IMG/VR virus record: IMGVR_UViG_2698536571_000010
Direction: 5' to 3' (one strand)
Length of the DNA: 6,515 nucleotides
Origin: a virus
Lineage: Duplodnaviria; Heunggongvirae; Uroviricota; Caudoviricetes
The position numbers and the translations under genes are program-made. The notes under the pieces are model-generated. The model saw nothing but the letters and a program-made list of their open reading frames with translations, searched no databases and was not told the DNA's origin. This document shows, piece after piece, positions 1 through 6,515 of this stretch. Each line of letters starts with the position of its first letter. The first letter of the stretch is position 1.

Positions 1-98
1 GGGGAATATCTCCCCGGCAGCCTTCAGGGAAAAATATCATCAGATGGCTGCTTAAAAAAAGAACAAATGGTAGTGTCCGCTATTGCCAGTACACCTCA
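1..98. repeat. Left arm of a perfect 98-bp terminal inverted repeat (partner at 6418..6515)
   Basis: Positions 1-98 are the exact reverse complement of 6418-6515; identity breaks at position 99 versus 6417. The arm contains an ATG at 67-69 in a frame that is open from position 1. Confidence 0.9.
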
Positions 99-282
99 GG
101 ATAGCGGTCATGTGATGCCGGTTTCCCGGTAACTCAGCACCGGTATCTGAGTCAACGTTTTCTCTACTGGGTCATTTCCGATACGCCCTGCCTGCTGACA
201 GGCTTTCATCACATCTGAAAATATAGCACCCTGACTGATACTGTAGTACCTAAGGTTCCAGAAACTGTGATGTATCCGGCAC

Positions 283-3285: not shown

Positions 3286-3563
3286 TTTTTGACCTGCCCT
3301 TCAAGCATTATGGGATAAATCTTCACCCCCAGACGTCCACCAGATACTGGCTGAGCACGAACGATATTGATTTCATCAAACTGCTCATCGTCCATTAGCA
3401 ACCCCGCATGCGTCAGCGCATCCAGCGGCGCTTTCAGAATATTGTCCAGGTCACGGCGGCGCTTATCCGGTGGTTCTGCAATAATTTTTATTGCCAACCT
3501 TCCGGACAGGCTTAATTTCAGCCGCTGCTGGCGAACAATAAGCGCCACTGCCCGGCGATAACG
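3282..3563 (-). CDS. rusA: RusA Holliday-junction resolvase (partial; 5' end lost in the N-run)
   Basis: The frame reads ...PPDKRRRDLDNILKAPLDALTHAGLLMDDEQFDEI...GGRLGVKI, matching the RusA catalytic core (PDRRRRDLDN...DALTKAGFWLDDAQ...GGRLELTI). It stays open up to the gap edge at 3563. Confidence 0.8.
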   Translation of the reverse strand, partial: RYRRAVALIVRQQRLKLSLSGRLAIKIIAEPPDKRRRDLDNILKAPLDALTHAGLLMDDEQFDEINIVRAQPVSGGRLGVKIYPIMLEGQVKK

Positions 3564-3770
3564 NNNNNNNNNNNNNNNNNNNNNNNNNNNNNNNNNNNNN
3601 NNNNNNNNNNNNNNNNNNNNNNNNNNNNNNNNNNNNNNNNNNNNNNNNNNNNNNNNNNNNNNNNNNNNNNNNNNNNNNNNNNNNNNNNNNNNNNNNNNNN
3701 NNNNNNNNNNNNNNNNNNNNNNNNNNNNNNNNNNNNNNNNNNNNNNNNNNNNNNNNNNNNNNNNNNNNNN
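3564..3770. other. 207-nt run of N (assembly gap or masked sequence)
   Basis: Continuous n from 3564 to 3770. It removes the 3' end of the DUF968-like gene and the 5' end of rusA. Confidence 0.95.
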
Positions 3771-4675
3771 TCAGCCTTTGTTCCCATCCCTCCCAGTCCA
3801 TGACCAATGATGTGATGCGGATCATCTGCCTGATTGCCACACGTCATGCATTTCTGCGTTTTTACCCAGCGCGTGTATACAGGCATCTCTTCCCGTTGTG
3901 ATTTCTGGCGCTGGAGATACTGAGCCGGTGACTCCGGATCAACGGCAATGCTGACCACCGTCTTTTCCTGTGGTGGGTTCTGTTGCTGGTGGACGTGAGG
4001 CAGTAACGCAATATTTTTTGTGCGCTGCTTCAGTATGCTGGTGGCTGTCTGCTCTCCCGGTATGATGTCGCTTTCACTGTACACAGAGCGAATTTTTTCC
4101 GCACGCAACCCCAGCGAACGACGTAATACCGCTTCCGGTAGCGCGTCCGCCACCTGATTGCGGACCGCCCACCAGGATAATTCAGCCAGAGATAATTCAC
4201 GCTCCTGCGTACCGCTTATTGCGTGACCGATGACGTCAATCATCCATGCTGACAGGTTTTGATGAGCAAGTTGCTCGAGTGATTCGGATGTCTGGTCACG
4301 CAGCTGGTTGTCGCAGTGCCAGCACAACACCATTGCGCCGGTACCATAACGGTGAATGACGGTTTCGCTGTGATGATAATCGCCGTGTGGCCACTGGCAG
4401 GATTTAATATGGCGCAACAGCCAGTCAGACAATGCACCAGCACCACCAGCAGCACGAATCACCCGTGCGTTACTGAAAAACGGCAGCAATGTTTTGTCTT
4501 CCACCAGCGGCTGGCGAGCGGCAGGAACGACCCCGGACGGCAGATTACGCATGCTTTTTGGTTCCGGCTCCACCAGTATTCTGCCGTTATGGAATGCTGA
4601 CATTGATTCACGGCCTGGCTTAACGATAACCAGACCGAGTTCCGGTACCAGAACAGGTCGAAGTAATACCCGCAC
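3771..4675 (-). CDS. DUF968/YdfU-like protein with HNH-like Cys/His motif (partial; 3' end in the N-run)
   Basis: Long minus-strand frame from a GTG at 4675 (GGAGG just upstream; an ATG at 4603 is the alternative start) running into the gap. Ends with CMTCGNQADDPHHIIGHGLGG just before the gap. Position upstream of rusA and Q mirrors ydfU next to quuQ in the Qin prophage. Confidence 0.5.
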
Positions 4676-4750
4676 ATTACCTCCAGATCCGTTGCTGGAA
4701 TGTGCGGGACGGACGCGTTGGCCGTTCGGAGTAAGGGAGCCTGACGGAGA

Positions 4751-5032
4751 TTATCCAGTGACGGTAGTCGAGGCTAAGGGCTTTTTTAACCTCGCATCCG
4801 CGCCTGCGGTAACACTGAATGAGCCATTCGGCCTGTTCTTCAGTGCATGGGGGATGCTGGTACCAATCAGATTTAAATGCGTGAGAGCGCCGCCCGTGCC
4901 TGCTGGCAAAGACGGCTGAATTATCAGAATTGTGTAGTCTGGAAGGCAGTGGCTGACAATAGCGCCATTCTCAACGCGCACAGTATAGAGGCCATCTTCA
5001 CTAAAAATTTCACGTAATTCTTCGATTTTCAT
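4751..5032 (-). CDS. Hypothetical small protein (93 aa) in the rem-like position
   Basis: ATG at 5032 preceded by GGAAGGA at about 8-10 nt. The N-terminal 40 aa look protein-like; the C-terminal half is G/P/T/S-rich and low-complexity, so the 3' part may be non-coding or frameshifted. Confidence 0.35.
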   Translation of the reverse strand: MKIEELREIFSEDGLYTVRVENGAIVSHCLPDYTILIIQPSLPAGTGGALTHLNLIGTSIPHALKNRPNGSFSVTAGADARLKKPLASTTVTG

Positions 5033-5114
5033 CAACAGAATCCTTCCAGATAAATAGCACTCCCCTGTTCGGGGTCCATCCCTCTTCTCCCTGCGCGCTA
5101 CTTAAGTATTTTTG

Positions 5115-5144
5115 ATTCTATTCCGGCACCATCTAAAACTTCAA
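5115..5144 (-). promoter_or_regulatory. Candidate sigma70 promoter upstream of the 93-aa ORF and DUF968 genes
   Basis: Minus strand has -35 TTGAAG (plus 5139-5144), 18-nt spacer, -10 TAGAAT (plus 5115-5120). Motif match only. Confidence 0.25.
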
Positions 5145-5152
5145 ACGCGTTG

Positions 5153-5182
5153 AAAATAAAAACAAAAACCCGCCGAAGCGGG
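5153..5182 (-). terminator. Intrinsic terminator at the 3' end of the hok mRNA
   Basis: Minus-strand hairpin CCCGC-ttcg-GCGGG (plus 5169-5182) followed by TTTTTGTTTTTATTTT (plus 5153-5168). Confidence 0.7.
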
Positions 5183-5252
5183 TTAAGTGTGGGTGCATTG
5201 AGGATGCCTGACCCATCAGAGGTGGCGAGGGATTTCTCCCCCGCCTGGTCTC

Positions 5253-5408
5253 TTACTCCTCAGGTTCGTAAGCTGTGAAGACAGCGACCTCCGTCTGGCC
5301 GGTTCGAATTCGTACCTCGCAGAGGTCTTTCCTCGTTACCAGTGCCGTCACTATGACGGTTAAACAGATGACGATCAGGGCGATTAACATCGCCTTTTGC
5401 TGCTTCAT
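5253..5408 (-). CDS. hokD: Hok-family type I toxin (51 aa, membrane-active)
   Basis: Translation MKQQKAMLIALIVICLTVIVTALVTRKDLCEVRIRTGQTEVAVFTAYEPEE has the Hok/Gef signature (single TM helix then RKDLCEVRIR) and matches HokD (RelF) as I recall it. AAGGAG sits 9 nt upstream of the ATG at 5408. Confidence 0.88.
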   Translation of the reverse strand: MKQQKAMLIALIVICLTVIVTALVTRKDLCEVRIRTGQTEVAVFTAYEPEE

Positions 5409-5580
5409 AGCCTGCTTCTCCTTGCCTTTCGGCACGTAAGAGGCTAACCTAGATTTGCCGTTCATAGATTGAGCCTCAGATTAATGTTAAGCGTCTTGCC
5501 GGACGCGTAATGTTAACTGGGGCTTTTCTCTATCTGCCTTTTGGTGTTCATGCCTGAGACAGATAGCCTCAAGCACCCGC
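5409..5580 (-). promoter_or_regulatory. hok mRNA leader (tac-like 5' end, in-frame mok-like upstream start, sokT-like antisense target region)
   Basis: The leader is near-collinear with the plasmid R1 hok mRNA leader as I recall it: 5' GCGGGTGCTTGAGGCTATCTG..., then ...AGGTTAGCCTCTTACGTGCCGAAAGGCAAGGAGAAGCAGGCTATG. An upstream ATG at 5465 is in frame with hok. A 3' sequence CCTCAATGCACCC (plus 5191-5206) is complementary to the 5' end, consistent with an fbi-tac pairing. Confidence 0.6.
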
Positions 5581-5584
5581 TGCA

Positions 5585-5612
5585 ATTCTACTTAACTCTC
5601 CTTTTCCCGCAA
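5585..5612 (-). promoter_or_regulatory. Candidate hok promoter
   Basis: Minus strand has -35 TTGCGG (plus 5607-5612), 16-nt spacer, -10 TAGAAT (plus 5585-5590), placing the start at the GCGGGTGCTTGAGG tac-like 5' end. Confidence 0.4.
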
Positions 5613-5699
5613 ACCGTTTTTATCCCCAGCGGCAAATCGAATACACCACCAGCGCCACCGCCATCGCAATTCCTACCGTTGTTAATGCTTCAGGCCAGG

Positions 5700-6044
5700 T
5701 CATCGTAAAATATCCTCCACGCTTATCAGTCCGTTCCGCTCCAGATAACTCATCGCCTTATCCGGTAATTTGCAGTCTGGCTTCGCTTTCCTCAGTTGCC
5801 AGGTTAACTGCTTTACCAGCATGGTTAACTCATCGACCAGACGCTGATATCCCACTGGTTTGTATTCATGCAATTTACCGGCTGGCTCTGCTGCCAGCGA
5901 TACCAGTGCGATTTCCAGAACAGCAATATCCATCTTATATGTGCGGATGATGTCATGGTCGATTGTGCCCGGTATGCACAGTCTCTGTGCTTCAATAGTC
6001 TCCTCTGCGTGAGCTATTAACTGCTCTCTGGTAAAAGTCGTCAT
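5700..6044 (-). CDS. Hypothetical protein, 114 aa (third gene of the small-ORF cassette; paralogue of the 55-aa protein)
   Basis: Its ATG at 6044-6042 overlaps the upstream stop (ATGA), with AAGGGG 7 nt upstream. The N-terminus MTTFTREQ... and the motif [10 protein letters not shown] align with MTTITKER... and [10 protein letters not shown] in the 55-aa product. No family recognised. Confidence 0.6.
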
Positions 6045-6208
6045 GCCGTAGCCCCTTCTTGATATTTTTCAAACCAGAACACAACCGGCTCTGCTTCCAG
6101 CGATGCCAGCGCAATCCGTGCCAGTTCCATTTGTTCACCACGGGTAAGCCCGTTTTCAAGCGGGTTTTTAATGAACAATTCAATACGTTCTTTGGTAATA
6201 GTGGTCAT
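6041..6208 (-). CDS. Hypothetical protein, 55 aa (second gene of the cassette; absent from the supplied ORF track)
   Basis: Hand translation from the ATG at 6208: [55 protein letters not shown]. The SD TAAGGAG overlaps the upstream stop at a 6-nt spacing; its own stop overlaps the next ATG. Confidence 0.55.
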
Positions 6209-6218
6209 GTGTTACTCC

Positions 6219-6449
6219 TTAACCCGCAGTGCTTTCAACTGATGAGGGGAACAAAATCTTTTCATCAAACCCTGCATTCATATCATGAACAGCAACACAC
6301 CAATCCATCGACGAACGATTATCAAGAGCCTCCATGATTTCATCCATGCGGCGTAGGTCATACAGGTAAATGCTTTTATCGCCAATGGTGTAAAAGCCAA
6401 TTTTTTTCGGTGATGGATGAGGTGTACTGGCAATAGCGGACACTACCAT
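6219..6449 (-). CDS. Hypothetical protein, at least 76 aa (first gene of the cassette; start may lie beyond the window edge)
   Basis: ORF MVVSAIASTPHPSPKK...SSVESTAG. The ATG at 6449 lies inside the right inverted-repeat arm and has no SD. The frame stays open for 22 further sense codons to position 6515, so the true start may be outside the window. Confidence 0.5.
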   Translation of the reverse strand: MVVSAIASTPHPSPKKIGFYTIGDKSIYLYDLRRMDEIMEALDNRSSMDWCVAVHDMNAGFDEKILFPSSVESTAG

Positions 6450-6515
6450 TTGTTCTTTTTTTAAGCAGCCATCTGATGATATTTTTCCCTGAAGGCTGCC
6501 GGGGAGATATTCCCC

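Follow-up and report, generated by a model that had tools for sequence, protein, structure and literature searches.

Results

An Intact hok/mok/sok Module in a Lambdoid Prophage

The 6,515-nt stretch of phage DNA analyzed here (IMG/VR virus record IMGVR_UViG_2698536571_000010, hereafter the window) very probably carries an intact type I toxin-antitoxin module, hok/mok/sok of the hokW/hokD subtype, comprising positions 5613-5157 of the minus strand and an antisense gene at 5422-5533 of the plus strand. A preceding sequence-only reading of the window had proposed a complete hok-type locus with its regulatory leader, and every element that it listed was found where it had been placed or within a few bases of it (Table 1). 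The element that hosts the module is a lambdoid prophage, and the module lies in its nin-like region. All genes around the hok locus are on the minus strand; past the locus they run, in order, as a 94-aa ORF, a DUF968/HNH-like gene that is the counterpart of K-12 ydfU, RusA, a Q-type antiterminator, a DNA methyltransferase and three tRNAs. The small ORFs on the upstream side gave no Pfam match and no RelB or RelE domain, and were assigned to phage families whose function is not known.

Complete hok/mok/sok loci are already known. The window holds an ordinary copy of a full-length form that is common in E. coli, and the discovery value of the locus itself is small. Of 5426 complete E. coli genomes, 3908 contain 80% or more of the 481-nt locus, at a median of 2 and a maximum of 9 places per genome. 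It also occurs in 78 phage records, including those of the Stx phages 933W and VT2-Sakai, both of which annotate mokW, hokW and sokW, and one further IMG/VR contig is identical to the window across a 507-nt locus. None of the complete E. coli genomes contains the window intact, the best of them matching 95% of positions 3850-6515 at 97.5% identity. An enrichment of hok in prophages has been reported elsewhere (preprint 10.1101/2025.08.07.668861). We compared the window with two sets of relatives: 95 unique loci, 80-100% identical to the window locus, that came from a pattern scan of IMG/VR, and a cross-genus set from a protein-based scan with one genome per species, which reached Kluyvera, Photorhabdus, Pantoea and others. 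Because the transcript ends of the window copy are taken from homology, they are given as predicted ends, and its 3′ processing and activity are likewise proposed by analogy.

Table 1. Features of the hok/mok/sok locus and its upstream neighborhood in the window
Feature	Position	Strand	Basis or remark
Small phage ORFs, function unknown	6449-5700	minus	upstream of hok locus
Candidate hok −35, TTTGCG, 17-nt spacer	5608..5613	minus	putative, sequence reading
Alternative hok −35, TTGCGG, 16-nt spacer	5612-5607	minus	putative, sequence reading
hok −10, TAGAAT	5585..5590	minus	six bases before first G of GGGUGC; conserved in 95-sequence set
Full-length hok mRNA, ~419 nt	5157..5578	minus	predicted; RF01794 model position 1 at 5578, 3′ end in T-run at ~5160-5157
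tac, mRNA nt 1-12, GGGUGCUUGAGG	5567..5578	minus	folds; invariant in 95/95 relatives
ucb, mRNA nt 54-60, AAGCCCC	5519..5525	minus	predicted to pair with mok RBS region (full length) or tac (truncated)
mok Shine-Dalgarno, GAGG, mRNA nt 102-105	5474..5477	minus	8 nt upstream of mok AUG
mok frame, 70 aa, in frame with hok	5253..5465	minus	ORF list
dcb, mRNA nt 134-139, AGCCUC	5440..5445	minus	predicted to pair with GAGGCU (nt 102-107), closing antisense-target hairpin
hok Shine-Dalgarno, AAGGAGAAG	5415..5423	minus	partly paired in full-length fold, unpaired in truncated fold
hok toxin gene, 51 aa	5253..5408	minus	PF01848 and PHROG 251
fbi, mRNA nt 376-388, CCUCAAUGCACCC	5191..5203	minus	pairing with tac; cross-genus compensatory changes
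Intrinsic terminator, stem 5184-5167, then T-run	5157..5184	minus	terminator scan and minimum-energy fold
Sok −35, TTGCCT	5422..5427	plus	17-nt spacer to −10; collinear with R1-type antisense-strand TTGCGC
Sok −10, TAACCT	5445..5450	plus	identical in 933W and Sp5
Sok RNA, ~71-77 nt	5457..5533	plus	933W sokW alignment and fold; predicted ends

Toxin Gene, Mok Frame and hok mRNA

The toxin gene reported by the sequence-only reading as HokD-like matched PF01848 (HOK_GEF) with 81.6 bits, where 22 is the cut-off, and PHROG 251, "MokW-like host killing," at E = 7.7e-33. It differs from K-12 hokD at a single nucleotide (ATT/ATC), and since this difference is synonymous, the encoded protein is identical to K-12 HokD, the coding sequence of which is toxic upon expression (preprint 10.1101/2025.08.07.668861). 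The mok frame closes at the hok stop codon, and therefore Mok is here an N-terminally extended Hok. An intact 70-aa in-frame Mok is encoded by 94 of the 95 unique relatives, and the mok AUG is invariant in all 95 even though it lies inside a hypervariable stretch.

The leader of the hok mRNA is 170 nt long and was found by the Rfam covariance model RF01794 on the minus strand at 5578..5403, where the full model (positions 1-157) matched with 112.4 bits (gathering score, 59; E = 9.5e-26). As a control, we scanned an R1-type IncFII plasmid, in which RF01794 likewise matched the hok strand (87.2 bits) and ended at the hok AUG. Despite its name, "sok," RF01794 thus models the hok-sense leader, and strand calls built on it need care. 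RF01794 is the only Rfam family for Sok, and the plus strand gave no match to it; because the model is hok-sense, as in the R1-type control, the missing plus-strand match is not evidence against a Sok gene. Under the 3′ UTR, at 5163-5250, two further models fell below threshold, isrK with 25.7 bits where 50 are required and rsmX with 23.3 bits where 56 are required, and both were rejected, as they draw on the terminator and one hairpin. At the 3′ end of the mRNA, the terminator scan returned the intrinsic terminator that had been read from the letters.

Both promoters of the locus were placed by homology. The generic sigma-70 scan missed both of them, since their −35 or −10 hexamers do not satisfy its 4-of-6 rule; its only match (5144..5115, minus strand) is unrelated and maps downstream of the hok terminator. 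The candidate hok −35 box is weak, agrees with the consensus at three of six positions and is poorly conserved among relatives. The −10 box has counterparts: at the matching site before GGGUGC or GGCGC, −10-like hexamers also occur in three other upstream contexts, where a P1-like element has TACAAT, strain E62 has TAGTAT and R1 has TATGAT, the last of which has been validated as the hok −10 box by mutation (PMC9841398). These equally placed hexamers favor the candidate promoter that had been suggested for the window.

A Predicted Antisense sok Gene

An antisense Sok-like RNA had been expected on the plus strand at about 5440-5540. We could place a predicted cis-encoded antisense gene there, with a promoter at 5422-5450 and a terminator of its own, which overlaps the mok start and coincides with sokW of 933W: the annotated 71-nt sokW maps by alignment to window 5457-5527. 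The putative Sok RNA would start at G5457 with a 14-nt single-stranded 5′ tail, followed by a hairpin at 5471-5525 and a U-rich tail, GGGGCUUUUCUCU, and would end at about 5527-5533. Its fold has an energy of −32.9 kcal/mol (z = −5.51). The gene overlaps mok over the first 9 nt of mok, as sokC does with mokC in K-12, and the 5′ tail is complementary to mRNA nt 109-122, a segment that includes the mok AUG.

The Sok −10 box is weak, with three of six consensus positions, and the conservation of the Sok promoter in the 95-sequence set was partly forced by the search pattern. In published work on prophage Sp5, a promoter-less sokW construct lost its antitoxin activity (PMC8621323), and comparison of primer YO-421 from that study with the wild type revealed that the altered hexamer is the TAACCT −10 box. 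The hokW probe of the same study, YO-597, matches window 5420-5449 exactly.

Predicted Folding Pathway

The predicted folds of the window hok mRNA reproduce the pathway of plasmid R1, for which the tac-fbi pairing and the mRNA folding pathway have been summarized (PMC9841398). In the nascent mRNA, the first 35 nt are predicted to form a metastable hairpin that holds tac, as they are in the R1-type control. The 419-nt RNA (5578 to 5160) folds with a minimum energy of −169.2 kcal/mol (z = −6.97), and this fold is closed by a helix of 12 bp with one bulged U between tac and fbi. The sequence-only reading had pointed to a tac-like 5′ end and a complementary fbi-like element near 5191-5206, and the complementarity thus held when the 5′ and 3′ ends were folded against each other. 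On its own, the tac-fbi duplex has an energy of −21.5 kcal/mol, which makes fbi the best tac partner on the minus strand of the window (the next reaches −18.2), and shuffled versions of the G+C-rich 3′ UTR attained −21.5 kcal/mol with tac in 23 of 2000 cases. The same folding procedure recovered the tac-fbi helix from the R1-type locus. Two further pairings are predicted for the full-length mRNA, one between ucb (nt 55-60) and the mok RBS region, which masks the GAGG Shine-Dalgarno, and one between CUCUU (nt 137-141) and the hok RBS.

Removal of the last 47 nt changes this picture in the predicted folds. In the truncated mRNA, tac pairs with ucb in a helix that is the outermost one in the RF01794 consensus, GAGGCU pairs with dcb so that the mok Shine-Dalgarno lies in the dcb stem of a target hairpin bearing the mok AUG, and the hok RBS is unpaired. 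These pairings of the truncated state come from an in silico fold of nt 1-372 and from folds of sub-fragments.

Conservation and Covariation of the Regulatory Elements

Nucleotide diversity in the leader and coding sequence is 0.02-0.04, compared with 0.17-0.32 in the flanks. Within the hokD/hokW clade represented by the 95 sequences, we found no covariation of tac-fbi or tac-ucb, both of which are invariant, and covariation of tac with fbi could therefore come only from more distant relatives. The cross-genus set provided two such compensatory changes: at tac position 4, U4-A is replaced by C4-G in Photorhabdus and Pantoea, and at tac position 12, G12-C is replaced by A12-U in Kluyvera and Photorhabdus. 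The distance of fbi from the stop codon is constant in this set, at 45-56 nt. Two of its members deviate, in that no fbi was found at hokC in a K-12-like genome (L143) and the tac-fbi pairing is weak in one Shigella copy. Other helices do vary in a compensatory manner among the 95 sequences, as seen in the 5′ hairpin, where A15-U47 is changed to G-C in 16 sequences, and in a 3′ UTR hairpin. Homology with P1-like phage-plasmids covers window 5580-5191, reaching from tac through fbi, and the 933W copy likewise aligns to a point just beyond fbi, while the promoters and terminators differ. This extent of homology delimits the functional unit.

The sole highly variable part of the locus is a 21-nt stretch, mRNA nt 107-127 (window 5472-5452), which comprises the Sok 5′ recognition tail, the target loop and mok codons 2-5. 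Its nucleotide diversity is 0.315, compared with 0.02-0.04 elsewhere in the leader and in the coding sequence, and it occurs in 18 variants that fall into about six major classes. Two genomes with three full-length copies were checked, and in each of them all three copies differ in class; this outcome is not significant, because with about six classes it has a probability of about 0.56 per genome by chance. We tentatively suggest, as a possibility that we consider rather unlikely, that the stretch serves as a specificity code that prevents Sok RNAs from cross-protecting where several prophage copies, up to 9, share a genome. If so, each prophage would retain private control of its toxin.

Proposed Mechanism and Biological Role

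By analogy with R1 and on the basis of the predicted folds, we propose an R1-like mechanism for the window locus. Transcription from the hok promoter would yield an mRNA of ~419 nt, the 5′ end of which would be held by the metastable hairpin while transcription proceeds. In the finished mRNA, tac would pair with fbi, ucb would mask the mok RBS and CUCUU would mask the hok RBS; because both RBSs would be masked, the full-length mRNA is proposed to be neither translated nor bound by Sok. Slow 3′ trimming would then strip the terminator and fbi, allowing tac to pair with ucb, and the hairpin closed by dcb would take up the mok RBS and present the mok start. A short-lived Sok RNA of ~71 nt would pair through its 5′ tail with mRNA nt 109-122, including the mok AUG, which would block translation of mok and the mok-dependent translation of hok and mark the duplex for RNase III. 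Once Sok synthesis stops, the fused Mok-Hok protein and Hok would be made, and the inner membrane would be depolarized.

The closest relative with experimental evidence is hokW-sokW, which Takada et al. (2021) characterized as a functional type I toxin-antitoxin system: HokW is toxic, sokW neutralizes it, both the hokW mRNA and the sokW RNA were seen on northern blots, and the system depends in part on RNase III and Hfq (PMC8621323). In prophage Sp5, mitomycin C leads to a RecA-dependent loss of sokW and a rise of HokW, and deletion of the locus halves phage release (PMC8621323). A role in aiding host lysis upon prophage induction, of the kind that has been proposed for hokW-sokW of Sp5, rather than in stabilizing the prophage, is a serious candidate for the window locus, although we hold it to be somewhat short of probable. 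Judging from gene orientation, early phage transcription in the hok sense would run head-on into the Sok promoter, so that Sok would fall and Hok would rise after induction. In line with this, hok is co-oriented with the flanking nin-region genes (the DUF968/HNH-like gene, RusA and Q), and it is co-oriented in 933W too. On the other hand, the step of read-through or collision is deduced, the effect seen in Sp5 is twofold, and the window copy differs from that of 933W in its position within the prophage.

A role in prophage maintenance through the killing of cells that have lost the prophage, or in excluding superinfecting lytic phages, as demonstrated for plasmid-borne R1 hok/sok, is conceivable but rather doubtful. 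The 933W and VT2-Sakai records do label the locus with "prophage maintenance," but this label is an annotation by analogy, and no enrichment near defense systems was found (preprint 10.1101/2025.08.07.668861).

It seems improbable that the locus is sequence-intact yet physiologically inert, persisting by riding on prophages, with no killing after loss and no response to transcription arrest. The weak promoter hexamers would fit such a silent locus, as would reports of other chromosomal hok loci without post-segregational killing (summarized in preprint 10.1101/2025.08.07.668861). Against it stand the far stronger conservation of the regulatory elements than of the flanks, the maintenance of helices by compensatory changes together with the nearly universal Mok frame described above, and the activity of the closely related hokW-sokW in its native prophage (PMC8621323).

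Comparison With Known hok/mok/sok Loci

The window module most closely resembles hokW-sokW of 933W and VT2-Sakai Sp5, to which it is 93% identical in nucleotide sequence between the promoter and a point just beyond fbi. In both 933W and the window, a 70-aa Mok is in frame with a 51-aa Hok, the Sok −35 and −10 boxes and the hok RBS are identical, and the carrier is a lambdoid prophage. They differ in mok codons 2-5 and the Sok 5′ tail (the encoded Mok begins with MNGKS in the window and MLNTC in 933W), in the Hok C-terminus (FTAYEPEE in the window and FVDYESEK in 933W) and in the sequence past fbi, where the window has a clear hairpin terminator that it has in common with K-12 hokD. The prophage positions also differ, between the replication genes and Q in the window and beside the Ant and Ea22-like genes in 933W. 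Because the Sok 5′ tail of the window differs at several positions, the SokW experiments are not transferable base for base.

Plasmid R1 hok/mok/sok (parB) is a more distant relative with ~52% nucleotide identity to the window, and HokW, a close relative of the window Hok, shares 44% protein identity with R1 Hok (PMC8621323). The order of elements, the predicted folding pathway and the position of the Sok promoter opposite the hok RBS are nevertheless alike. Whereas R1 mok is out of frame with hok, with 58 nt between the start codons, mok of the window is in frame, with 57 nt. In addition, the Sok terminator hairpin of the window is longer, with 16 nt inserted when compared with the Rfam consensus, and the carrier is a prophage rather than a plasmid. 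K-12 mokB also differs in frame from its hok, unlike the window mok. By contrast, the hokC/mokC/sokC (gef) locus resembles the window in having Mok in frame with Hok and a common stop codon; the hokC protein of the K-12-like genome noted above (L143) is ~82% identical to that of the window. hokC is a core-chromosome locus, while that of the window belongs to a prophage, and in K-12 an IS186 lies ~20 nt past the hokC stop codon.

K-12 hokD (relF) of the Qin prophage shares 94-98% nucleotide identity with the window from the hok RBS (5422) through fbi and the terminator and into rem and ydfU. Qin is collinear with window 3774-5422 (ydfU, rem, hokD), and the collinearity breaks at 5422/5423, where relE begins; upstream of window 5422, nothing aligned with K-12. 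Because of this break, the K-12 copy keeps only the hok RBS, the ORF, an orphan fbi and the terminator, while the promoter, tac, ucb, mok, dcb and the whole of sok are missing and relB-relE stand in their place. RF01794 gave no match at the K-12 hokD locus. The sequence-only reading had regarded hokD of relBEF as lacking regulatory elements of its own, and the losses in K-12 agree with a published statement that a rearrangement inactivated hokD (PMC12214031). Although near-identical copies carry the PGAP name hokD, the chance that the window gene is itself a leaderless hokD of the relBEF type, or resembles hok by accident, is negligible, since no relB or relE lies upstream of it, a full leader is present (RF01794, E ~1e-25) and K-12 homology ends at 5422.

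Our findings support the reading of K-12 relBE-hokD as a truncated derivative of a full hok/mok/sok unit such as that of the window. A rearrangement at the equivalent of 5422/5423 would have cut away the promoter, the tac, ucb and dcb elements, mok and sok, leaving a leaderless hokD downstream of relBE. In most E. coli genomes, the gene that PGAP names hokD belongs to a complete hok/mok/sok module, with the Sok RNA and the Mok frame left unannotated, and is not the crippled gene of K-12. K-12 hokD is thus the exception among these loci rather than the type.

The hok-sense leader and the Sok target

In the locus under study, the Rfam family RF01794, named "sok antitoxin", matched the hok-sense strand (window 5403-5578, minus strand), as it also did in the R1-type plasmid control locus L003 (332-503, plus strand). 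Since in both loci the match lies on the hok-sense strand, starting at the 5′ end of the mRNA and reaching the AUG of hok, RF01794 models the hok leader and not the antisense RNA. Strand assignments based on this family would come out inverted.

Sequence variation among the 95 unique relatives was concentrated in one short stretch of the leader, whose nucleotide diversity was 0.315, versus 0.02-0.04 in the remaining leader and the hok coding sequence. We found 18 variants of this stretch, falling into about six major classes, although the mok AUG within it was invariant. The stretch may determine the specificity of Sok between co-resident copies of the locus.

Constraint and a possible editing site in hok

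In the hok coding sequence (window 5253-5408), diversity among the relatives was 0.032, 0.017, and 0.032 at the first, second, and third codon positions, respectively. Because third codon positions thus showed no excess of variation across this coding sequence, the comparison suggests constraint at the RNA level throughout the hok ORF. The coding sequence also contains the TadA editing motif UACG (window 5267-5270, minus strand), formed by the Tyr47 codon UAC and the following G. In K-12 hokD, A-to-I editing at the equivalent position is reported to convert Tyr to Cys at a level of about 6% (PMC12214031); the full-length copy of the window keeps this site.

Neighboring features

The hok promoter is closely preceded by the end of a small hydrophobic ORF, at whose position a near-identical copy of the locus has an annotated small hypothetical protein of 34 aa. 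The start of this ORF, ATGACCTGGCCTGAAGC, is also included in primer YO-432, with which hokW-sokW of the Stx2 phage VT2-Sakai was cloned (PMC8621323), and the ORF therefore travels with the hok locus. Elsewhere, a run of N leaves the DUF968/HNH-like and RusA-like ORFs not completely readable.

Positions of features in the window
Feature	Window position	Strand	Remarks
Hypervariable stretch	5452-5472		mRNA nt 107-127; spans Sok 5′ tail, target loop of the tail, and mok codons 2-5
27-aa hydrophobic ORF	5620-5703	minus	3′ end immediately upstream of hok promoter
sRNA family STnc100, strong match	277-466	minus	123.6 bits (cut-off 47); downstream of methyltransferase
Three tRNA genes	546-792	minus	Downstream of methyltransferase
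Second STnc100-like match, weak	50-238		21.8 bits
Run of N (masked or unresolved)	~3560-3800		Junction of DUF968/HNH-like and RusA-like genes

Copies in other hosts and replicons

A 96.5%-identical copy of the Escherichia-type hok locus was found in the phage record PP818812.1 (database match H71), whose recorded host is Actinobacillus pleuropneumoniae, an unexpected host given this degree of identity. The short contigs L145, assigned to Acinetobacter, and L150, assigned to Xanthomonas, likewise carried near-identical hok fragments; both may represent contamination.

More distant copies, 87-88% identical, were detected in a phage recorded as P1 (L128, MH445380.1) and in several plasmids of 96-100 kb (matches H32-H39). 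The homology of these copies with the window locus extends from tac, the 5′ element of the mRNA, to fbi, the 3′ element that pairs with it. The P1 record MH445380.1 differs from the window locus in its promoter, which carries TACAAT in the P1 record, and in its terminator.
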